From Candidatus Cloacimonadota bacterium (GTDB lineage: Bacteria; Cloacimonadota; Cloacimonadia; Cloacimonadales; JAIOQZ01): a stretch of 64,000 nt of DNA. Position numbers and translations under genes: made by a program. The stretch covers positions 3,415-67,414 of the forward strand of contig JAIOQZ010000038.1 of assembly GCA_021108395.1 (NCBI GenBank), given 5' to 3'. This document shows positions 8,751 to 42,489 of the stretch, in pieces; positions within the stretch are counted from its first letter, which is position 1, and each line of letters begins with the position of its first letter. The notes beneath the pieces were generated by a model. The model did not search any database. It saw only the letters and a program-made list of their open reading frames with translations, and was not told the DNA's origin.

Positions 8751-10769
8751 TTAACTTTTCTTTTTCCTTAGAAGTTTATTTAGGTCAGTAAATATCCTTT
8801 CAAAATTGTCTAGAGTATTATCAGATATGGTTTTTTCTAAGTCTTCTATATTTTCTTGAAAATAACGTGCAGGCCTATAATGATTAAATGTGATGCCTTT
8901 TGGGGGGGTCTGCTTTAAGTAATCCTCGATGCGTTTCAACACACGAGGATGTTTGCTTTTCAAATCTATTTGCTTGATAGTCGTGCCGAATTCACCATTT
9001 ACTAAGGAAAGATAGAAATCGATATCGAACATGTCTTCAATATCTGCTGAAGGTCGATTCAGATAGTCACCAAACGTAAGCACGCGACTTTTTGTTAGAA
9101 GTTTTTTCTTATACAGATTCTCGATTGACTGCCTATCTTCAGGTTTGACATCAACAAGTACTGCGATTTTTAAGTCTTTCTGTGAGCCCAAAAGAGAGAC
9201 AAAAGTCTGCACTTTGTCCGCACCACCAACAGGAGTAATTGTCCATTTGGCACTTAATCCAGTTCGATTCGATCTCTCAAGACTACTTGTGATGCATCGA
9301 AGATAGATCAAATCAGATGGACCTTCAACGATTAGACAATTAGGTCCTATGAACAAAGATTGCGTTATACTGTATCCCATTGCAGCCTGCAAAGGGAAAA
9401 TGGTGTCATCATCTGTTTCGAGTACATCTTTAGTAACTTTTGTTGTTCCATCCTTATCCTCATACACAGCTCGTACATTCTCGAAGTTGTTAACATCAAC
9501 AAGAAATGGGGAGTGTGTAGAATACATGGTTTGATTAGATGCGGATAGTTTTTTGAAAAATTCAATAAGTTTAGCTTGTGCAGTACCATGTAAATGTAAT
9601 CCTGGCTCATCAAGCAATAAGATACTGTCTTTGTGTGCTCCTTCTGCTTCAACTAAGAAGACAAGATAAAAGGAAAAGAAATACTGCATACCATAACTTC
9701 TTTGGTCCAGTTCGATCTCACTAGGATCTAAATCATCTGATACCCAAATTCTTAAATAATCACCATCAGCTTGATAGCGAAACTTATGTTTCCTTTGATC
9801 CCACCAATCAGAAAACTTACGAGTCATTGAATTTGATGCTGAGGAGAAATGAATAGCTCGTTCATCAATATATCTTCTGGTTTTTTCTTCATCAATCCTT
9901 TGACCGTGATTATGAATTCCAAGATTCGCAAGAGTTTTAATATCTAAGCCTACATGTTGAAACATGCACATGGTAATTCTTTTATTCGGTGATGGTTGAT
10001 TCAAAAAGGATGGCAGGTGAATGGCACTATCTAAGACGTTATACTTATCGAAATATATGAATTGAGGAAGCATTTCTTCAATATGACTTAACGCTATTTT
10101 GTAGTCTTCAATTTCCTTTTTTCTCTCAGTGTATGGTGTAAGAATCTCCATTATTGATTGTAACACATCCTTCTGCCATTCTTCATTAGCCCTTTGAAGA
10201 AGCTTTTGTTGTATTTGGTCTACTATTTCTAAAATGTTGTCATTGTTGACTGTTTGCTTTATACTGTTTAGGCTATCAGACAAATTCTGTTTTATATCTC
10301 CGAGTTCTTCACCTTTTCCATCAGGTGCTGTTAGATTGTTAACACTATCAACTATTTCATCGATAAATTCTAAAATTTCTTTCTTCTTAATATATCTAAC
10401 ATCTGGTTGAGGATAAAAAGCAGTGCTATATTTTGTAGAATAATAACGTGTGATTTCAACGTGATCAACTTTTGACAAGAGAGATGAGAGTGCTGTGAGT
10501 TTATCAACCTCAGACTCATTTAGGCTAAAACGACAACTCGATACTGGCCAAGCCCATTTCTCATATTCATCTGTATATCTTTTTCTTGGAAACTCCTTAA
10601 GGCCATCGTATTTCTCTTTGTCTGATGGATTGAACTTTGATAAACCTCTGAACACAGCCGATTTTCCTGCCTCATTTTTGCCCACAAAAGCAGTTAAATC
10701 TCCAACATCAATCCAGCCTGTATCATGTACTTTTTTGTAATTTTGCACTCGGAAAGCAGTCAGTCTCAT
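8751..10769 (-). CDS. Fused ABC-type (AAA_15/21-like) ATPase and C-terminal Toprim-like nuclease; OLD-family / single-chain PARIS-like candidate defence protein
   Basis: Walker A GKNEAGKS, signature-like QRSYGMQYF, Walker B ILLLDEPGLHLH, H-loop STHSPF. The Toprim-like part has LIVEGPSDLIYL, PVGGADK and VLVDVKPED. Start chosen at ATG 10769, which follows GGAGGAA. Codon usage is AT-rich. Confidence 0.8.
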   Translation of the reverse strand: MRLTAFRVQNYKKVHDTGWIDVGDLTAFVGKNEAGKSAVFRGLSKFNPSDKEKYDGLKEFPRKRYTDEYEKWAWPVSSCRFSLNESEVDKLTALSSLLSKVDHVEITRYYSTKYSTAFYPQPDVRYIKKKEILEFIDEIVDSVNNLTAPDGKGEELGDIKQNLSDSLNSIKQTVNNDNILEIVDQIQQKLLQRANEEWQKDVLQSIMEILTPYTERKKEIEDYKIALSHIEEMLPQFIYFDKYNVLDSAIHLPSFLNQPSPNKRITMCMFQHVGLDIKTLANLGIHNHGQRIDEEKTRRYIDERAIHFSSASNSMTRKFSDWWDQRKHKFRYQADGDYLRIWVSDDLDPSEIELDQRSYGMQYFFSFYLVFLVEAEGAHKDSILLLDEPGLHLHGTAQAKLIEFFKKLSASNQTMYSTHSPFLVDVNNFENVRAVYEDKDGTTKVTKDVLETDDDTIFPLQAAMGYSITQSLFIGPNCLIVEGPSDLIYLRCITSSLERSNRTGLSAKWTITPVGGADKVQTFVSLLGSQKDLKIAVLVDVKPEDRQSIENLYKKKLLTKSRVLTFGDYLNRPSADIEDMFDIDFYLSLVNGEFGTTIKQIDLKSKHPRVLKRIEDYLKQTPPKGITFNHYRPARYFQENIEDLEKTISDNTLDNFERIFTDLNKLLRKKKS

Positions 10770-10837
10770 TTGTTCCTCCATAACTATCAATTAAAGGCTT
10801 TTCAATATTTGTATTCAGAACAGTTATTATGTCAATC

Positions 10838-28588: not shown

Positions 28589-28695
28589 CGCTGCGGGAGA
28601 ATGGGGGGAGGGAGGGGAGTAAGGGAGATGATAAAAATCTCTGAAGCTTAGAATTCAGCCATAAGACATTTACTATTCCGTTTTGAAAAATGTTC

Positions 28696-28740
28696 TTGAC
28701 AGGAGAAATTGCAATTGCAAGTTCGATTTAGTTTTGGAGG
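28696..28740 (+). promoter_or_regulatory. Candidate promoter/operator of the AT-rich two-gene island
   Basis: TTGACA at 28696-28701; the perfect 12-bp palindrome TTGCAATTGCAA at 28709-28720; a TAGTTTTG element; then GGAGG 9 nt before ATG 28750. Confidence 0.3.
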
Positions 28741-28749
28741 ATTACCCTA

Positions 28750-30903
28750 ATGAGTATAAGAAACAAGAAAGCGAATCAAGCAACGTTGCGTTCCTACCAG
28801 ACAAAAATCAAATCACCAATTTGGGAAGCCTATAGTAATGCATTCGAGGGAATGTTCAAGGATCTACAAAACAATAATCGACTTGATCTTTCTCCATTAT
28901 CACATGAGCGGTCAAATAATGGTTTCGAGAGAAATTTTTCTTGGGATTGGTATGTGCCTCATACAGAAGCCACAATCAGTTTGAGGAAAGGGCATTCGTC
29001 CCATCATGAGGATGATTTAAAGCGTTGGACTAATTCAGAGGAGAGCTTTTTCGATATTCTTTTCGAAAAAAATACTAGATTAGTTGATGTGATTGGATAC
29101 ACTGGATTAGGAAAATCAACATTTCTGCACTATTTCTTTCTTAAATATCTTCCTGACAAAGTTGATAGTGAATCTGGTGTCGAGGAAAATTCAATCGTAG
29201 ATTTAAATAAACTGGCAGTAGTAAATATTCCGTTAATCTTTACGTCAGTCGAGGCAATTATGGGGGAATGGAATAGTGAAGTGAATAATTTCCTCTGGAC
29301 CCGTTTCAGTGAATTGTCTACAAAAGTGTTCTGGAAGAGTCTATTGCGATCAAATTTATACTTGCATCATGATTTTGAATTTGAAGTAGTAAATGATGAA
29401 TTAAAGGTAAGGCCACCAACAGATCCCAATTTAGTAGATTACTACCAAGATAGTGAAGAATTGGTTAATAGCATTGATAATAGAAGGAATACTAAAAACA
29501 GTTTTAAAAAGTGGTACAGAGATCTTTCGACTTGGAGAAGTACAGAGTATGATATCGGTTATGACATGAATCTACAGATAATTAGAATGCTCTCGAAATA
29601 TTTCGGTTATACATTTCTACTGATTATTGATAATATCGATCAAGTACATAAAATGCAACAAGATCGAATATTGGAAATAATCCAATTAAAAATGAGATTA
29701 TACCAAGACTACAAAAACGTCAAATTAATTATTGCGGTTAGAGACAGTTTCTATGAGCCTGTACTCTCTAATACATATGTTGCGTCTTACGGGAGAAATC
29801 GAAAACCGTTTCACTTACCAGCTATGAATTTGAGAATTGTTCTTGAAATACGGAAAGAAAGATTATTTGACCCATTAAAAGGAAATTGCTCGCGGATGTC
29901 AATAGTGAATAATACGGAAGTTGAGGTAAGCAATGTAGATAATTTTTTGGAAGCACTCTTCATGTTTTTTGATGATGCGGCTGACAACTATCACGAATTG
30001 TATCAACTAGCAAATTACAATATTCGCAGAATGCTTAAAATAGTGCAATATTACATTGAATCTCCTCATATGAGTTTGCCTCTAATACATGACATTTCAA
30101 GACTATCAATGACTTGCCCTCCTAATCGCACTGAAACAAAACAAATAGTACATAAACTTTTGTCATTCGAACGATTAGTAGATGTACTGATTCGTCATTC
30201 AAATTATTTAGTTGACATTAAATCAGATTCTCTAATGCCAAATTTATTTAACTCAGGTAGTGCTGAACATTTTTCATCTACTCTAACACGACTTTTCACT
30301 ATTTGGATTGTAAATAGGGAATCTTCTGTCTCGGTCGATGAAGTTATTGCGAATTTGGAATCCTTCGGTCACGGAAAGGCAGCTATAGAAAGAGAAATCA
30401 ACAAATTATTGGAAATGCAGTTGATTTTTTCAAATATGGGAAACGATATCGCAAATAATCCGAAGCGCAGAAATCAGATGTTAGAAACCAGAGATCTTCC
30501 CTGTGGGAGATATATTATAAATCATGTAATTGGTAGTCTTTACTATATCCAAAGATATGCATATATTACTCCTATGCGATCGGATTTATTGGAAGATGTC
30601 TATCTACCAGAATCTTCATCTGAAAAAATTGATTTCAAGAAGAGAATGATGGGAGCAAGTGCATTATATAAACAACTAGAATCAGATTTCATAAATCAGT
30701 ATGAGTTTGTTGCTGGGTATCAGAAAGAAAACCCACAATGTAGGGTATTGAATAAATTTAATTACTACGGATTTTTCCAGATAATTAAACAAATTCATAG
30801 TCAAATTGAGTTTACTTGTGCTGATTTGCAACTGCTATTCAAAGAAGATAAACTCGACTCAGCACAGCTTTTTCCAAATCATAGAATATCTAATTTCCCA
30901 TAG
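28750..30903 (+). CDS. AAA+/STAND-like P-loop NTPase with a predicted winged-helix region; function unknown (candidate conflict-system NTPase)
   Basis: Walker A VIGYTGLGKSTFL; Walker B FLLIIDNIDQ; sensor-1-like KLIIAVRDS; lid-like ANYNIRRMLKIV; wHTH-like VSVDEVIANLESFGHGKAAIEREINKLLEMQLI. Composition is about 27-30% G+C in sampled lines. Confidence 0.8.
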   Translation: MSIRNKKANQATLRSYQTKIKSPIWEAYSNAFEGMFKDLQNNNRLDLSPLSHERSNNGFERNFSWDWYVPHTEATISLRKGHSSHHEDDLKRWTNSEESFFDILFEKNTRLVDVIGYTGLGKSTFLHYFFLKYLPDKVDSESGVEENSIVDLNKLAVVNIPLIFTSVEAIMGEWNSEVNNFLWTRFSELSTKVFWKSLLRSNLYLHHDFEFEVVNDELKVRPPTDPNLVDYYQDSEELVNSIDNRRNTKNSFKKWYRDLSTWRSTEYDIGYDMNLQIIRMLSKYFGYTFLLIIDNIDQVHKMQQDRILEIIQLKMRLYQDYKNVKLIIAVRDSFYEPVLSNTYVASYGRNRKPFHLPAMNLRIVLEIRKERLFDPLKGNCSRMSIVNNTEVEVSNVDNFLEALFMFFDDAADNYHELYQLANYNIRRMLKIVQYYIESPHMSLPLIHDISRLSMTCPPNRTETKQIVHKLLSFERLVDVLIRHSNYLVDIKSDSLMPNLFNSGSAEHFSSTLTRLFTIWIVNRESSVSVDEVIANLESFGHGKAAIEREINKLLEMQLIFSNMGNDIANNPKRRNQMLETRDLPCGRYIINHVIGSLYYIQRYAYITPMRSDLLEDVYLPESSSEKIDFKKRMMGASALYKQLESDFINQYEFVAGYQKENPQCRVLNKFNYYGFFQIIKQIHSQIEFTCADLQLLFKEDKLDSAQLFPNHRISNFP

Positions 30904-30911
30904 GAAGTTAT

Positions 30912-31196
30912 ATGATGAAGATAGATCAATTTATTCAGAAAACACTGTTGTCAATTCAGGTTGGGGTAGATGGCGCGAATGATTCTTCGAATGATGTTAA
31001 GTTTTTTTTGAAACAGTGGAATAGTGCCGGTACAGATTCTGGTATCCACTTTGATATTGCAATAAGTGTGGATAAAGAATCAAGTGCAGAAGGTACTGTT
31101 GGTGTTATACATGTAATATCTGCGAAACTAAAAGGACGTTTGGCAAAAAGAAACAAACAGATTTCGCGGATTCAGTTCGTGGTTCATGTAAAATAA
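30912..31196 (+). CDS. Small 94-aa protein, beta-rich, reminiscent of trypco2-type small partner proteins
   Basis: It starts 8 nt after the NTPase stop and has the same AT-rich composition. The pattern is an N-terminal helix, then IHFDIAISVDKESSAEGTVGVIHVISAKLKGRLAKRNKQISRIQFVVHV. The family assignment is from memory only. Confidence 0.6.
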   Translation: MMKIDQFIQKTLLSIQVGVDGANDSSNDVKFFLKQWNSAGTDSGIHFDIAISVDKESSAEGTVGVIHVISAKLKGRLAKRNKQISRIQFVVHVK

Positions 31197-31290
31197 ACAT
31201 CTGACACGAAATCGGAAAGATTCATTACAAAATTGGTCATTCAATTCATCCCCCATCTTTTCCTTGCCACAAACGCGCACGTTCTGCAAA

Positions 31291-31989
31291 ATGGATGCTA
31301 CTATGGAAACAATTATACGAACAAGCGAACTGCACAAGGTTTATCAGATGGGCAAGGTGAGTGTGCGCGCCCTGGCAGGCGTGGACATCGAAATAGGCGC
31401 CGGCGAGTTCGTGGCCATCATGGGGCCGTCGGGCTCCGGGAAGTCCACGCTGATGCACATTCTGGGCTGCCTCGACAGCGCCACCGAAGGCAATTACTGG
31501 CTCGAAGACGAACGCGTGAGCGGCCTCAGCAAACGCCGCCTGGCCACCATTCGCAATCAGCGGGTCGGGTTTGTCTTCCAAACGTTCAACCTGCTGCCCC
31601 ACCTGAACATTCAGAAGAACGTCGAGCTGCCGCTCATGTACTCCGGCATGGGGCCGCGCAAACGGCGCAACCGCGCCCGTGAGGTGCTGGCCAGCGTGGG
31701 GCTGTCCGACCGCCTGCGCCACCGCCCGTCCGAGCTGTCCGGCGGCCAGCGACAGCGCGTGGCCATCGCCAGAGCCATCGTCAACTCGCCGTCCATCGTC
31801 CTGGCCGACGAACCCACCGGCAACCTCGACACCGGCTCCGGCAGCGACATCCTGAGCCTGTTCAGCGAGCTGAACGATCGTGGACACACCATCATCATCG
31901 TCACCCACGACCCCGCCGTGGCGCACCGCGCCAACCGCATCATCAAGATCGTTGACGGCCTCATCGTTGACGGGGAGGACGCGGCGTAG
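31291..31989 (+). CDS. ABC transporter ATP-binding protein (MacB/LolD-type)
   Basis: Walker A GPSGSGKST, signature LSGGQRQRVAIARA, Walker B IVLADEPTGNLD. Start is ATG 31291 or 31303. Confidence 0.9.
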   Translation: MDATMETIIRTSELHKVYQMGKVSVRALAGVDIEIGAGEFVAIMGPSGSGKSTLMHILGCLDSATEGNYWLEDERVSGLSKRRLATIRNQRVGFVFQTFNLLPHLNIQKNVELPLMYSGMGPRKRRNRAREVLASVGLSDRLRHRPSELSGGQRQRVAIARAIVNSPSIVLADEPTGNLDTGSGSDILSLFSELNDRGHTIIIVTHDPAVAHRANRIIKIVDGLIVDGEDAA

Positions 31990-31990
31990 C

Positions 31991-33226
<1,236 letters not shown>

Positions 33227-38802: not shown

Positions 38803-39645
38803 CTATGCAGCTTTCAGGATTTCATCTGGTGTGTGATAGTTTTGAGTGATGATGATACGATCCTCATTGTATATCCTGATCGCGTCTTTCACATAACGCG
38901 ATGCATCATCAAAGTCTCTGAAATTCCTCTTCAGCCCCAACTCGTGCTTCAGTATGCCGTTAATCCTCTCTGCTTTTGCGTTGTCGTAGCATTTACCAGC
39001 ACCTGTCATGCTGGTTAGATAGCTATACTTACGCAGAGCTCTCTGGAACCGGTTACTGGTATATTGGCAGCCATGATCAGAATGATGAATGCCAGATGGA
39101 ACATGTTTGCTTGTACGCACTTGACGAAGTTTCTTCATCGCTTGCTTCAATGCAAGTGCGGGACCTTGGGCTCCCAAGTCCTTTTGCAGTGAGTACCCCA
39201 GGATTGAATCTGAATAATGATCCGAGGTGAGAGACAAAAACACAAACCCCTTTTGCGTACGAAGATAAGTAATATCACTCGCGATTATTTCACCTACACG
39301 CTGGGCAGTGCCCATCAGCTTCACCAAATTTGGGTATTTACTGCGTCGTCCTATGCTTGTGTAGCATCGGCGACGATATACCTGAGAGAGCATGTTATGA
39401 GCTCGTAAAGTACTGAAGAGTTTATCCCTGCCTACGTTAATACCGCTCTCGACCAACATGTATTGCAGTTTGCGGACGCCGATGAAAGGCTGGGCTGCCC
39501 GTATCCGCTTTACTGCGAGGATAATATCATCAACCAACACCTGCTGTTTCTTGATGATACTCCTATGCTGATAATACCCTTGTTTAGAACGGCCAAACAA
39601 TCCGCAAACAGTATTCATGTTAGCGGTTACTTCTTTCTCTTGCAT
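38803..39645 (-). CDS. IS3-family transposase OrfB-type (HTH_21 plus rve DDE core); no orfA present
   Basis: VCGLFGRSKQGYYQH; DDE residues in IIASDITYL, IHHSDHGCQYTS and YDNAKAERINGILKHE. An A10G run lies upstream at 39682-39691. The in-frame extension to 39957 looks non-coding. Confidence 0.8.
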   Translation of the reverse strand: MQEKEVTANMNTVCGLFGRSKQGYYQHRSIIKKQQVLVDDIILAVKRIRAAQPFIGVRKLQYMLVESGINVGRDKLFSTLRAHNMLSQVYRRRCYTSIGRRSKYPNLVKLMGTAQRVGEIIASDITYLRTQKGFVFLSLTSDHYSDSILGYSLQKDLGAQGPALALKQAMKKLRQVRTSKHVPSGIHHSDHGCQYTSNRFQRALRKYSYLTSMTGAGKCYDNAKAERINGILKHELGLKRNFRDFDDASRYVKDAIRIYNEDRIIITQNYHTPDEILKAA

Positions 39646-39780
39646 AACGGCCCGACACTCGGTGATGATTGTGAACCAGTCTTTTTTTTTTACTCCAAGA
39701 CCATACCTCCGCTCTATTTTGCTTGACACCTCCCAGCGCTCATGCACATGCTTGTATAATAAAACTATGGAAGTGGAATT

Positions 39781-42489
39781 ATGAAAAGCTGTCTGCTCGC
39801 CGTCCTTTTCCTGTTGCTGGTGAACTCGCTCATGGGGCAAACCAGAATCGATTACATAGTTGACCCAACTGATGATGATGCATATCACTCGTTGGCTGAG
39901 GTAATGATAGTCATTCGGGAGACACTTGGTGCATATATACACCAAGTATGGATTCATCCGAACATCGATCCGGGCACAGGCACAGTTATCCCATATTATG
40001 AGCCTTGTTTATATGCCGAGTCGAGGAACATAGAATTCCGTGCAGCTGACGGGCACTCAGCTCAAGATGTCATAATAGAACTGGAGAACACCGCGGCTGT
40101 ATATCTGATTCATATGGAGCACGGTAGCTTCGAGGCACTTGATGTCACCTTCCAAATTGCAGCAGTCTCCATTGCGTGCACACGGATTATCAGTGTCCAT
40201 GCATTTCAAACTTTATGTCTATCTGATTGTATCCTGACATCATACAGCCCAAACGTAAAGTATGGCGTGTACTATGGGGGGGGAGGGTTCGAATATCGAG
40301 TAATGCAGATTATAGACTGCCACTTCAACCATGCCGCTATGGATACAGGAAGTGGTTCTGCGATTTTTGCGGATAGTGCCACTGAGGCTTATGTTGGTGG
40401 AAGTGTCATTGAAAACAACAACAAAGGTATATGCTTCTGTAAATGTGGAGATCAGAAAGTTGTTTGGTCTGAAATCCTGAACAACAACCTTGCGGTTGAT
40501 TCATACGGGGTGTCTTTTGTGTCTAATATTGGAGATGAAGTATCCTCTGAGGTTAGTAATTGCGTGATCATCAACAATAAAACTGGTGTCTGGACGGAGC
40601 TGATTGGGACATTGATTAGACATAATATCATGTCACAAATCCCCTACAATATTCGGATTAGTGACATGATGCCAAGCTGGGATTTTGATGCTTCCGCGTT
40701 TTGCAGATATAATCTGCTTATCACAGATGCTACAGGCGACCCAACAACTGCCGCTTGCGTTGAGAATAACGGTTTACTAACATTGACCAGTAACACAATT
40801 ATATGTGAACCGGGCAATTCCACTGACCTGGATGTCATTGCTGTTGACCAAAATAACGTAGGTGGGTGGCTCTTCAATTTAATTGACAACATTGTACTCG
40901 GCTTCCCCCCAGGTTGTTGGGATACCCTCCAGGACTTCAGTTGGGTTCAAGTGGAGTATTGCTGTTGTGATGTAGGGGTTCCATATCCTCACCAGGCATA
41001 TTATTTGAACATCTACACAGACCCCTTGTTCACTGACCCGGGCAATACGGAGCTCCCCCAATGGGGCTACGACCTTACCTGGGATTTTGATGCATACAGC
41101 TCGTGCATCGATAGGGGCGATCCTGAACTTGAAGACCCCGATGAAACCCGATCCGACATCGGCGCTTTCTACTACCCGCAGGAAACCGTAACATACCCCT
41201 TTGACGAACTGGTAAATGCCAGCAATATAGTATGGCTCAGCTTCCCTGTCATGGATACCCGCTACGATGAAGAGGAAGATGCATTTCTCAACGAGGTTGT
41301 TCCCATGCTGCACCCATACACTCTTTTTGATCCGCCTGCAACAGAACCCGAGCTTATCAACATCGACTGGATGATTGGCGGACATGACGGTACTGCAGTA
41401 TGGAATGACCAGCAAAACGTTTGGACGAATGGCGAGCACCGGCTGACGTCGCCATATGGCTACAAACTCAGGTTCAGGGATAATGAGGTGACTGACCTCG
41501 AAATCACAGGTCGCCCGGGGCTGCCGGACAAGGACGTCGTCCCGCTCTATAGTGAAGAAGACGAAGAAAGAACCTATCTGAACTGGATAGGCTACTTCGT
41601 TCCCAAAGGCCTGTATGTTCTGGACGCGTTCTCCACCAATATCGAATATATGTACTCAATTAAAACTCAGCGCTGGAGTATCGTGAGGAGGACTCAGGAC
41701 CCGGAAAGCGAGTGGATAATACCTCCCTCGTCTGACCCATACACAATACACTACATGGATTGCATTGAAGTGAAGGTGTTCGCTGATTCACCCAGTGGAA
41801 TGCTCTGGAACGTGCCCGAAGGAGCTGCACCTGAATACTATCCGCCGGAAACCGAGTATTTCAGCTATGTAGAGGAAATGGACTACACCCCTGTGTACAT
41901 CGTCACGGAGCCGGGAAGCCCACCCAGCGAAATAGCCACATTCGTCGATAGCGTCTGCATCGGCGCCGCCGTAGTGGAAGACACCCTCACGCTTGTTCGC
42001 GCCTACCTGCCCGATCTGAACAGGGACAACAACTGGGAACTCGCCATTGCCGTTCACTATGGCGACAGAGGGGCCGGCGCTGAACCTGTGAGCGATTATC
42101 ACGTCTTCGATCCAGCGACCGGTTCATACATAAAACGCACCATTGACTTGCGCGAAGGCGCCGACTACTACATGATCTCGCTGAAGGGCCCTGACCCGGA
42201 CGCGCCGGCCCGGCCCACCGGCATCGAAGGAGTATGGCCCAATCCTTTCAATCCCACCACCACCGTTCGCTTCAATCTCGCCGGCGAGTGCGATGCGCAA
42301 CTGAAGGTGTATAACGTGCGCGGGCAACTTGTGAAGACGTTGCTTGCAGAGCAATTGCCTGCGGGCCTACATGAAATCATGTGGCACGGCGTTGACGAGA
42401 ACGAGCGTCCCGTGGCCAGCGGCGTGTATTTCGTGCGGTTGGCAGCCGGCGGCAGGGAAGAAACGCGCAAAATGCTGCTGCTGAAGTAG
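39781..42489 (+). CDS. Secreted right-handed beta-helix-like protein with FlgD-Ig/T9SS-type CTD (passenger gene 1)
   Basis: Signal peptide MKSCLLAVLFLLLVNSLMGQ; C-terminus VWPNPFNPTTTVRFNL...VYNVRGQLV...GVYFVRL...MLLLK. Confidence 0.85.
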   Translation: MKSCLLAVLFLLLVNSLMGQTRIDYIVDPTDDDAYHSLAEVMIVIRETLGAYIHQVWIHPNIDPGTGTVIPYYEPCLYAESRNIEFRAADGHSAQDVIIELENTAAVYLIHMEHGSFEALDVTFQIAAVSIACTRIISVHAFQTLCLSDCILTSYSPNVKYGVYYGGGGFEYRVMQIIDCHFNHAAMDTGSGSAIFADSATEAYVGGSVIENNNKGICFCKCGDQKVVWSEILNNNLAVDSYGVSFVSNIGDEVSSEVSNCVIINNKTGVWTELIGTLIRHNIMSQIPYNIRISDMMPSWDFDASAFCRYNLLITDATGDPTTAACVENNGLLTLTSNTIICEPGNSTDLDVIAVDQNNVGGWLFNLIDNIVLGFPPGCWDTLQDFSWVQVEYCCCDVGVPYPHQAYYLNIYTDPLFTDPGNTELPQWGYDLTWDFDAYSSCIDRGDPELEDPDETRSDIGAFYYPQETVTYPFDELVNASNIVWLSFPVMDTRYDEEEDAFLNEVVPMLHPYTLFDPPATEPELINIDWMIGGHDGTAVWNDQQNVWTNGEHRLTSPYGYKLRFRDNEVTDLEITGRPGLPDKDVVPLYSEEDEERTYLNWIGYFVPKGLYVLDAFSTNIEYMYSIKTQRWSIVRRTQDPESEWIIPPSSDPYTIHYMDCIEVKVFADSPSGMLWNVPEGAAPEYYPPETEYFSYVEEMDYTPVYIVTEPGSPPSEIATFVDSVCIGAAVVEDTLTLVRAYLPDLNRDNNWELAIAVHYGDRGAGAEPVSDYHVFDPATGSYIKRTIDLREGADYYMISLKGPDPDAPARPTGIEGVWPNPFNPTTTVRFNLAGECDAQLKVYNVRGQLVKTLLAEQLPAGLHEIMWHGVDENERPVASGVYFVRLAAGGREETRKMLLLK

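Follow-up and report, generated by a model that had tools for sequence, protein, structure and literature searches.

Within a 64,000-nucleotide (nt) stretch of contig JAIOQZ010000038.1 from the Candidatus Cloacimonadota bacterium assembly GCA_021108395.1 (hereafter the window), an AT-rich islet holds just two genes, both in the same direction. The first encodes a 717-amino-acid (aa) AAA+ NTPase of a rare family, the second a 94-aa protein that very probably belongs, as a divergent member, to the pore-forming effectors of the Trypco2/Pepco family. Neither the islet nor the NTPase itself includes a protease, and the 94-aa protein ends where its relatives carry a C-terminal tail. We give about an even chance to the reading that the islet is a conflict module gained by horizontal transfer, most likely an anti-phage system of the abortive-infection type, in which the NTPase would serve as the switch and the Trypco2/Pepco-like protein as the effector, under a control that does not depend on a protease.

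The family assignment of the 94-aa protein came from both direct and transitive hidden Markov model (HMM) matches. The two closest homologs of the NTPase, labelled P0003 and P0004 (33% and 36% identity, respectively), are accompanied by small genes encoding proteins of 112 and 116 aa. These are homologous to each other (BLASTP E=5e-18) and align end to end with the 94-aa protein (E=5e-05 for the P0003 partner). An HMM made from the two partners ranked the 94-aa open reading frame (ORF) first among the 442 ORFs of the window, with E=0.0018 against 0.68 for the next. With the same two proteins as queries, a search of representative genomes yielded another 24 relatives. The HMM of these 24 sequences, built independently of any NTPase context, recovered the 94-aa ORF with E=5.6e-11, the next of the window ORFs standing at 1.7. 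Pfam family PF19631 (Trypco2) was matched by 13 of the 22 aligned members of the small-protein family (best E=2.4e-05), with one member at most matching any other Pfam family; direct matches to Trypco2 were obtained with the P0003 partner (E=0.014) and with the family consensus (E=0.0084). The original prediction had likened the 94-aa protein to Trypco2 on its predicted helix-then-strand pattern; the likeness is borne out by these results, with a direct match that stays below threshold and no competing family. We hold the identity claims, taken jointly, with high confidence, and regard the protein as very probably a Trypco2-family member on the strength of these HMM matches. It is at the same time the most divergent member of the family, scoring 37.7 bits where the others score 80-113. 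Sequence searches of the PDB and of PADLOC-DB v2 with the 94-aa protein returned no match.

Three blocks characterise the small-protein family: an N-terminal helix (MELKDFISQTL.QI..GV), a strand (I.FDVAVT) and a C-terminal strand (SRIKF.VP(h)x(L/F)P). The 94-aa protein has the layout of a Trypco2 protein, namely small size, an N-terminal helix and alternating strands (z=+1.9 to +3.2). Strict polar/apolar alternation is a trait of the family strands in general (z=+1.5 to +3.8), and the helical hydrophobic moment of the N-terminal helix, weak in the 94-aa protein (z=+1.2), spans +0.8 to +2.8 across the family. The difference lies at the other end. The protein terminates in ...SRIQFVVHVK, leaving a tail of 1 aa compared with 3-37 aa (mean 13.4; 28% charged, 13% Pro) in 21 relatives. 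A His is found where at least 90% of the relatives have Pro, the (h)x(L/F)P motif is absent, and the variable loop is the shortest in the family. No cleavable Pro/charged C-terminal tail was found in the 94-aa protein. Hits of two kinds were discarded: a match of the small-protein profile to Hia in the PDB, judged spurious (E=0.69), and Foldseek matches of the low-confidence 94-aa model to the C-terminal domain of MamM (E ~5e-3), treated as meaningless.

The same features could describe a module in decay, no longer functional, whose 94-aa gene would be a truncated and diverged remnant of a Trypco2-like gene. The low score of the protein, its short loop, the His in place of a near-invariant Pro and the single-residue tail all fit such a history. 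Nevertheless, both ORFs are intact and tightly spaced, the three core blocks are kept in the 94-aa protein along with the strand alternation (z=+3.2), the NTPase keeps every invariant catalytic residue, and the sequence is identical in three assemblies. We therefore consider decay very unlikely.

The significance of the missing tail is best seen against what has been published on the family. The names Trypco1 and Trypco2 were given to genes found together with trypsin-like peptidases in conflict systems that depend on NTP (Kaur et al. 2020, PMC7159879). They have been renamed Pepco, and one member has been characterised: SsPepco of Streptomyces subrutilus, a 117-aa protein whose gene lies immediately upstream of that of a protease-bearing Avs4 (SsPepco-SsAvs4; Evans et al., bioRxiv 10.1101/2025.11.14.688446). 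SsPepco constitutively forms SDS-resistant β-barrels of 9-10 subunits, which permeabilise the membrane, and its N-terminal amphipathic helix is required; toxicity arises once a charged, Pro-rich tail of 2 kDa has been cut off after Ile97 by the protease, and a construct ending at Ile97 kills cells alone (10.1101/2025.11.14.688446). Pepco/Trypco2 has been reported as the most abundant protease-associated effector of prokaryotic immunity. Protease-less pairings are mentioned neither in the SsPepco study (10.1101/2025.11.14.688446) nor in a 2026 survey of STAND proteins (Lee et al., bioRxiv 10.64898/2026.01.04.697583).

Like the Pepco-protease-STAND modules, the islet has the gene of a small, Trypco2-related protein, of the order of 100-120 aa, directly beside that of a STAND-class NTPase, and P0003 and P0004 even keep the canonical order, with the small gene immediately upstream. 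The N-terminal amphipathic helix, the alternating β-strands and, in the relatives, the Pro/charged tail also agree with the published description of SsPepco. Unlike those modules, the islet offers no trypsin- or caspase-like protease, fused or adjacent, and its 94-aa protein lacks the cleavable tail and the Pro motif. No protease was found in the islet, in the NTPase, or beside the P0003 and P0004 pairs. With the protease missing and the 94-aa protein finishing at the point where a tail would begin, control of a functional effector would have to be protease-independent. The original prediction, seeing no recognisable effector, had proposed that the effector logic was new. This does not stand as worded, Trypco2/Pepco being an already demonstrated pore-forming effector; a narrower form of the claim survives, in that the islet has neither the licensing protease nor a tail to be cleaved.

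We envisage that the 717-aa protein would be an NTP-driven sensor and switch, and that the 94-aa protein would permeabilise the membrane, acting in trans in the slot where relatives of the NTPase have fused nucleases or phosphoesterases. The NTPase might keep the 94-aa protein inactive, or might be needed to assemble or release it. In the simplest model it would do so directly and in an NTP-dependent manner, by sequestration or release or by templated assembly. A trigger sensed through the winged-helix domain (WHD) and the C-terminal region would cause an NTP-dependent change that frees the pore.

That the two proteins work together is argued from the arrangement of their genes. The Trypco2-like gene lies 34 and 12 nt upstream of the NTPase gene in P0003 and P0004, respectively, and 8 nt downstream of it (stop to start) in the window. 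The gene order is thus reversed, and because adjacency is kept while order changes, a functional linkage between NTPase and small protein seems probable. The conserved co-occurrence that the original prediction had set as a check was therefore observed in both of the closest NTPase homologs. Enrichment in defence islands, which it had also set as a check, was not shown for the NTPase family.

Adjacency of this kind could also reflect a toxin-antitoxin-like addiction module, in which a constitutively active, tail-less membrane toxin would be neutralised by the NTPase and would serve islet stabilisation or stress suicide, without dedicated phage sensing. The order in the window, NTPase first and small toxin second with 8 nt between them, is similar to that of antitoxin-toxin operons. 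The lack of an inhibitory tail also fits, given that SsPepco truncated at its cleavage site is toxic alone (10.1101/2025.11.14.688446), and so does the position of the islet, by itself and outside any defence island. A 717-aa NTPase of several domains, WHD and C-terminal bundle included, is on the other hand much more complex than an antitoxin; its relatives fuse the NTPase to nuclease or phosphoesterase domains, which is a sensor-effector layout, and the order is inverted in P0003 and P0004. On balance we regard the addiction module as unlikely.

The family of the 717-aa NTPase is rare and patchy in distribution: an exhaustive HMMER search of 1.84 billion protein representatives found 42 related clusters only, four of them containing full-length homologs (28-36% identity). 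The indexed, word-based search of 5.8 billion proteins had returned nothing except the query itself for either protein, and full-length homologs at 31-36% identity escaped it even when a 29-sequence profile was used. Because exhaustive HMMER found homologs that it missed, calling a protein an orphan from an indexed search alone is unsafe for AT-rich, divergent sequences, and the label of orphan initially given to the NTPase had to be dropped. A locus search with the four closest NTPase sequences added nothing new from genome, viral or metagenome collections.

Against Pfam, NCBIfam and PADLOC the NTPase reached no curated threshold. Its own sub-cut-off Pfam scores were 16.7 bits for AAA_22, 14.1 for nSTAND1 and 11.8 for nSTAND5. 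Among 32 relatives, AAA_16 was matched by 27, AAA_22 by 25, NACHT by 13, nSTAND5 by 12 and nSTAND3 by 8, every member with a listed bit score lying below the cut-off. No relative was found in the PDB by sequence with the NTPase alone; with the family profile, the matches (NB-ARC, TnsC, ORC4, Cdc6) were at the level of the P-loop only. Residues 275-644 match phrog_14719, a phage family of unknown function (E=6e-17), and yet tblastn of the NTPase against phages (INPHARED) and plasmids gave no match. Two distant members of the family, unlike the window NTPase, match the PADLOC candidate PDC-S60 (E=8e-23), which like phrog_14719 is uncharacterised, and an endonuclease effector model is matched by two members.

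Conservation was computed over 29-32 members of the family. The Walker A, Walker B and lid motifs named in the original prediction (GYTGLGKST, LLIIDNID and NIRRMLKIV) are all present, with key residues invariant or at least 90% conserved; R368 and G540 are further invariant or near-invariant positions. From the model, R331 at the end of the fourth core strand appears to occupy the sensor-1 position. An Arg at that position is a STAND habit. R426 in the lid is a candidate sensor-2 Arg in the manner of ORC/Cdc6, and the lid motif resembles the corresponding ORC/Cdc6 motif, GDAR.A..LL.

The AlphaFold2 (AF2) model computed with the family alignment (mean predicted local distance difference test score, pLDDT, 80.8; predicted template modelling score 0.80) comprises a partly ordered N-terminus of about 95 aa, an AAA+ core with a helical insertion, a helical lid, a winged-helix-like unit and a C-terminal helical bundle. 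The bundle, of about 130 aa, is a candidate sensor or oligomerisation region. In Foldseek searches of the PDB the top 19 matches were ORC/Cdc6 chains, with E=3.5e-06 to 1e-03 over 500-650 columns (7tjj_A, 3.5e-06; 1fnn_A, 7e-05). They were followed by BrxC of BREX systems (9zll/9zdx, ~1e-03) and then by the plant nucleotide-binding leucine-rich repeat receptors NRC3 and NRC4 (2-5e-03). On the basis of this model we call the protein an ORC/Cdc6-STAND-class AAA+ NTPase, the Arg assigned to sensor 1 being the STAND habit and the lid Arg the ORC/Cdc6 habit. A nucleotide-binding, helical and winged-helix core is common to STAND and ORC/Cdc6 proteins and does not tell them apart. The class originally proposed for it, an AAA+/STAND-like NTPase that has a winged helix and whose lid is ORC/Cdc6-like, agrees with the model, with the Foldseek matches and with the AAA_16, NACHT and nSTAND matches of the relatives.

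With ORC1/Cdc6 and BrxC the NTPase shares the AAA+ core, the lid with its conserved Arg and the C-terminal winged helix. It differs from them in sequence (9-16% identity) and in overall superposition (TM-scores 0.2-0.45), in the invariant STAND-like sensor-1 Arg, in the extra N-terminal region and C-terminal bundle, and in the lack of replication or BREX genes around it. With the Avs STAND NTPases (10.64898/2026.01.04.697583) it shares the P-loop NTPase, the helical and winged-helix core and a patchy, horizontally transferred distribution, and the N-terminal effector slot is variable in its relatives, as it is in Avs. Unlike Avs proteins it has about 130 aa after the WHD, where a typical sensor has at least 400, no fused effector and no Pfam STAND model at threshold; unlike Avs4 it has no TPR-type sensor and its fold is nearer to ORC/Cdc6. 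The family is thus not typical STAND: a large repeat sensor is lacking and so, for the window protein, is a fused effector.

The NTPase's N-terminal region sits where its relatives carry effector domains. In the subgroup of the window protein it measures about 95 aa, with high pLDDT for residues 1-40 and low pLDDT for 41-95, and gives no domain match; its conserved motifs are rich in Trp and Phe. A cryptic protease in this region was considered and ruled out, because the segment is not long enough and none of its Ser, His, Asp or Cys positions is conserved. In distant relatives the domains preceding the same NTPase module include Metallophos (P0014 and P0016), HSDR_N with S1 (P0048), a cold-shock domain (CSD; P0050), TPR with a PG-binding domain (P0021) and unknown domains of about 280-300 aa.

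A second variable is the small partner. By family, the window NTPase, P0003 and P0004 have partners of the pore-former, Trypco2-like type. Three other homologs (P0006, P0009 and P0011) have upstream of the NTPase a protein of 127-165 aa with an N-terminal transmembrane helix and a β-rich domain. These partners, which we call Family B, are related to one another at E=1e-10 to 1e-12 and match no Pfam family above threshold; that they might be remote relatives of Trypco2 was rejected (hhalign probability 0.2%). P0005 (31% identity) has neither type. Upstream of it lies a gene for a 120-aa helical protein with a C-terminal transmembrane segment and downstream an overlapping gene for a 138-aa protein. 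An NTPase with a small protein is thus a recurring theme in the family, the small protein being membrane-anchored in Family B and in the upstream partner of P0005.

Several observations weigh against a conflict module built from these two proteins. The direct match of the 94-aa protein to PF19631 scores 13.3 bits (E=0.1) against a gathering cut-off of 24.2 bits; this E value equals p ~4e-6 if the single family is pre-specified, and is still below the curated cut-off. Modelled by AF2 from its sequence alone, the protein gave a poor result (pLDDT 59.9), with a helix at 59-79 instead of a hairpin. A Trypco2-like partner was seen at no more than 3 of the roughly 9 NTPase loci sampled; the genes around the NTPase at these loci were mostly housekeeping or unknown, without enrichment beside defence genes. 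In PADLOC-DB v2 the best hit of the 717-aa protein was PDC-M05A at E=0.0065, and no known system was recognised at the locus.

Members of the Trypco2-like branch outside the NTPase pairs were found in contexts related to genetic conflict. Some lie between HsdS (Methylase_S) and HsdR (HSDR_N, SWI2/SNF2, T1RH-like_C) in type I restriction-modification (R-M) operons. Others follow the gene of a conserved protein of 159 aa that has a hydrophobic segment at its C-terminus, in one case with a 1494-aa Type ISP restriction-modification enzyme further upstream (L042), and one is near an AAA_13 ATPase (L022). Six Bacteroidota phage records carry such a gene (L045, L047 and four of Riemerella type). In two temperate phages it starts 6 nt after the gene of a repressor/HTH regulator, and in Bacteroides phage BS-TP2 it is also beside HicAB; the repressor of the Porphyromonas phage has an S24-type GDSMYP motif. 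This position is reminiscent of that of rexAB next to cI in phage lambda. A plasmid copy adjoins IS66 and an integrase. Several other members adjoin housekeeping genes, among them ThiC, RpoD and FtsH. Among the 10 large neighbours of the branch that were scanned, none was a trypsin- or caspase-like protease. The BS-TP2 gene is annotated as PhnM, evidently wrongly.

The retention of tails in this branch bears on a further explanation, by which the Trypco2-like proteins would be licensed proteolytically by a protease acting in trans, either a housekeeping protease of the host or one of the phage, such as a prohead protease, with the NTPase in a parallel or indirect role. All characterised Pepco systems are protease-gated (10.1101/2025.11.14.688446; PMC7159879), and a Pro/charged tail of 3-37 aa is retained by most members of the branch with no protease next to them, for which reason an external licensing factor is plausible for the branch. 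In the 94-aa protein, with one Lys after the core, there is practically nothing to cleave, and the adjacency to the NTPase conserved in three genomes argues for direct coupling. For the islet we judge this explanation decidedly improbable. A bolder version of the preferred, protease-independent control is put forward tentatively, as possible and not as probable: the 94-aa protein might be a "pre-cleaved" Pepco/Trypco2 pore toxin gated directly by the NTPase, with an NTP-driven step replacing proteolysis. The whole Trypco2-like branch would then do without a dedicated protease, and the tails retained in it might be bait for phage or host proteases.

The islet itself is delimited by its composition. 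It has about 33% GC compared with about 55% in the flanks; in 300-nt windows, the values are 0.30-0.37 over ~28650-31200, 0.47-0.58 upstream and 0.53-0.70 in the downstream ABC transporter gene. The sharp difference in composition noted in the original prediction is confirmed by this profile. The figure of 16-18 G+C per 60 nt that it gave was slightly low (the mean is about 20), and the contrast with the flanks is real. ORF coordinates agree likewise with its two co-directional genes 8 nt apart, and its description of an acquired cassette is consistent with the composition contrast and the absence of mobility genes. The left-hand neighbour is an MTS-type methyltransferase gene (Pfam E=1.4e-35), and on the right lie genes of a MacB-type ABC ATPase and a permease. 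The NTPase gene forms an AT-rich islet in three unrelated genomes: in the window, at the P0005 locus L008 (0.37-0.38 against 0.57-0.63) and at the P0006 locus L013.

The locus, with the same flanks, is present in an NCBI metagenome-assembled genome (Candidatus Cloacimonetes, tags K8R90_07945/07950), in an assembly of the European Nucleotide Archive and in a Logan assembly. Because the flanks are the same in all three, the locus is not an assembly chimera; the islet sequence is identical among them, and the underlying reads may overlap between the assemblies. A search for an empty site through the flanking methyltransferase returned only the same islet-bearing contigs. No integrase or transposase was found inside the islet, as had been stated in the original prediction, and no transfer RNA gene adjoins it or lies within it. 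At its edges, the search for flanking repeats, attachment sites or target-site duplications gave only short matches at chance level; an Rfam scan of the islet gave no match, and promoter and terminator scans did not rise above shuffled controls.

These data also address the possibility that the NTPase is a housekeeping ATPase of a mobile element (ORC/Cdc6-, TniB/TnsC- or IstB-like), with the small ORF an unrelated accessory and the islet the remnant of the element. The best structural matches are indeed to ORC1/Cdc6, the islet is AT-rich, and a few members of the family weakly match TniB and ORC-CDC6-like models, the family profile touching the P-loops of TnsC and ORC4. Those matches to TniB and ORC, however, are at P-loop level only. 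No transposase, integrase, terminal repeat or origin-like feature was found in or at the islet, which lies on a bacterial chromosome between the methyltransferase and ABC transporter genes, without origin-like repeats that would give an ORC/Cdc6-like protein a replication context, and no such genes stand beside the NTPase homologs. Nor do the N-terminal nuclease and phosphoesterase fusions of the relatives, or the small membrane partners, fit replication or transposition. We give this possibility very little credence.

To our knowledge, the only control described for Pepco/Trypco2 is removal of the C-terminal tail by a sensor-fused protease. If the conflict-module reading is correct, there is a second way of controlling the same pore, by a protease-free NTPase, the pairing occurring in three distant genomes, and the two genes (2.4 kb) would make a compact system for dissecting how an NTPase switch is coupled to a pore-former without covalent processing. 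What appears to be new is the combination of a rare ORC/Cdc6-STAND-like NTPase family, a protease-less and tail-less Pepco partner and a wider protease-less Trypco2-like branch. Current Pfam and PADLOC thresholds miss both the NTPase family, with its swappable effector slots, and the branch, with its members in R-M operons and prophage immunity regions. Should the module be inert, or a mere toxin-antitoxin pair, it would amount to one more hypothetical islet. Coordinates of the features are collected in the table.

Table. Features of the islet, of its two products and of related loci. Positions without a prefix are those of the window; positions with an L prefix are those of the related loci.
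Feature	Position	Strand	Basis and remarks
AT-rich islet, ~2.67 kb, ~33% GC	28589..31260	.	Composition profile; between methyltransferase gene and ABC transporter operon
717-aa ORC/Cdc6-STAND-class AAA+ NTPase (class from model), rare family	28750..30903	+	ORF, family search, AF2, Foldseek, phrog_14719
N-terminal region, aa 1-95	28750..29034	+	Conserved SPIWEAY..AF..MF and WDWYV motifs; alignments, AF2
Walker A / P-loop GYTGLGKST, aa 116-124	29095..29121	+	G116, G119, G121, K122 at least 90% conserved
Walker B LLIIDNID, aa 290-297	29617..29640	+	D294, N295, D297 invariant; on model strand E288-294
R331, end of core strand E324-331	29740..29742	+	Invariant column; strand from model
Lid helix motif NIRRMLKIV, aa 424-432	30019..30045	+	R426 at least 90% conserved; helix H425-437
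Winged-helix-like domain, aa ~509-580	30274..30489	+	Helix-strand-helix-helix-strand, pLDDT 90-96; approximate boundaries
C-terminal helical bundle, aa ~584-717	30499..30903	+	AF2, pLDDT ~77-96; no family match
94-aa divergent, tail-less Trypco2/Pepco-family protein (probable), candidate pore-forming effector	30912..31196	+	Direct and transitive HMM evidence
N-terminal helix MKIDQFIQKTLLSIQVGV, aa 2-19	30915..30968	+	Corresponds to family block MELKDFISQTL.QI..GV, by alignment
Strand IHFDIAISV, aa 45-53	31044..31070	+	Strict polar/apolar alternation; 180-degree hydrophobic moment z=+3.2; family block I.FDVAVT
C-terminal strand RIQFVVHV and single Lys, then stop	31167..31196	+	Pro motif and Pro/charged tail absent
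Family B partner genes	L013:1900-2283 (P0006), L016:3456-3953 (P0011), L019:104-574 (P0009)
P0005 partner genes	L008:5008-5370, L008:7479-7895
Trypco2-like genes in type I R-M operons	L038:315-647, L039:5001-5327, L043:5001-5339		12-24 nt gaps or overlaps; no protease nearby
Trypco2-like genes after conserved 159-aa protein with C-terminal hydrophobic segment	L042:4932-5336, L040:770-1144
Phage Trypco2-like genes	L045:4001-4405 (Porphyromonas phage006a_EM3), L047:4001-4390 (Bacteroides phage BS-TP2)

Some further features of the window were noted in passing. A G-rich tract, GGGAGAATGGGGGGAGGGAGGGGAGTAAGGGAG (28596-28625), marks the exact left edge of the islet, directly after the stop codon of the methyltransferase gene; it might be a G-quadruplex-prone or insertion-site feature. 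The nearest integrase gene, of the rve family (38803-39957, minus strand), is located about 7.6 kb downstream of the islet in a modest GC dip (0.44-0.46, 39000-41000). Gene and islet are not contiguous, and no link between the two was found. A long antisense ORF runs over the high-GC ABC transporter gene (31246-32259, minus strand, in the window; L002:6342-6926, minus strand). In the truncated Logan contig the gene caller picked the antisense strand over the ABC gene, which is an artefact of composition and not a different neighbourhood.

A second AT-rich islet is found at 8751-10790 (minus strand), with GC of 0.37-0.38 against about 0.55, and contains one gene. Its 679-aa product combines an AAA_15/AAA_21 ATPase domain (E=9e-25) with an OLD-like TOPRIM domain that falls just short of the cut-off (E=5.5e-4). 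The gene resembles those of OLD-family nucleases and is likely another acquired defence islet, of a single gene, in the same genome.

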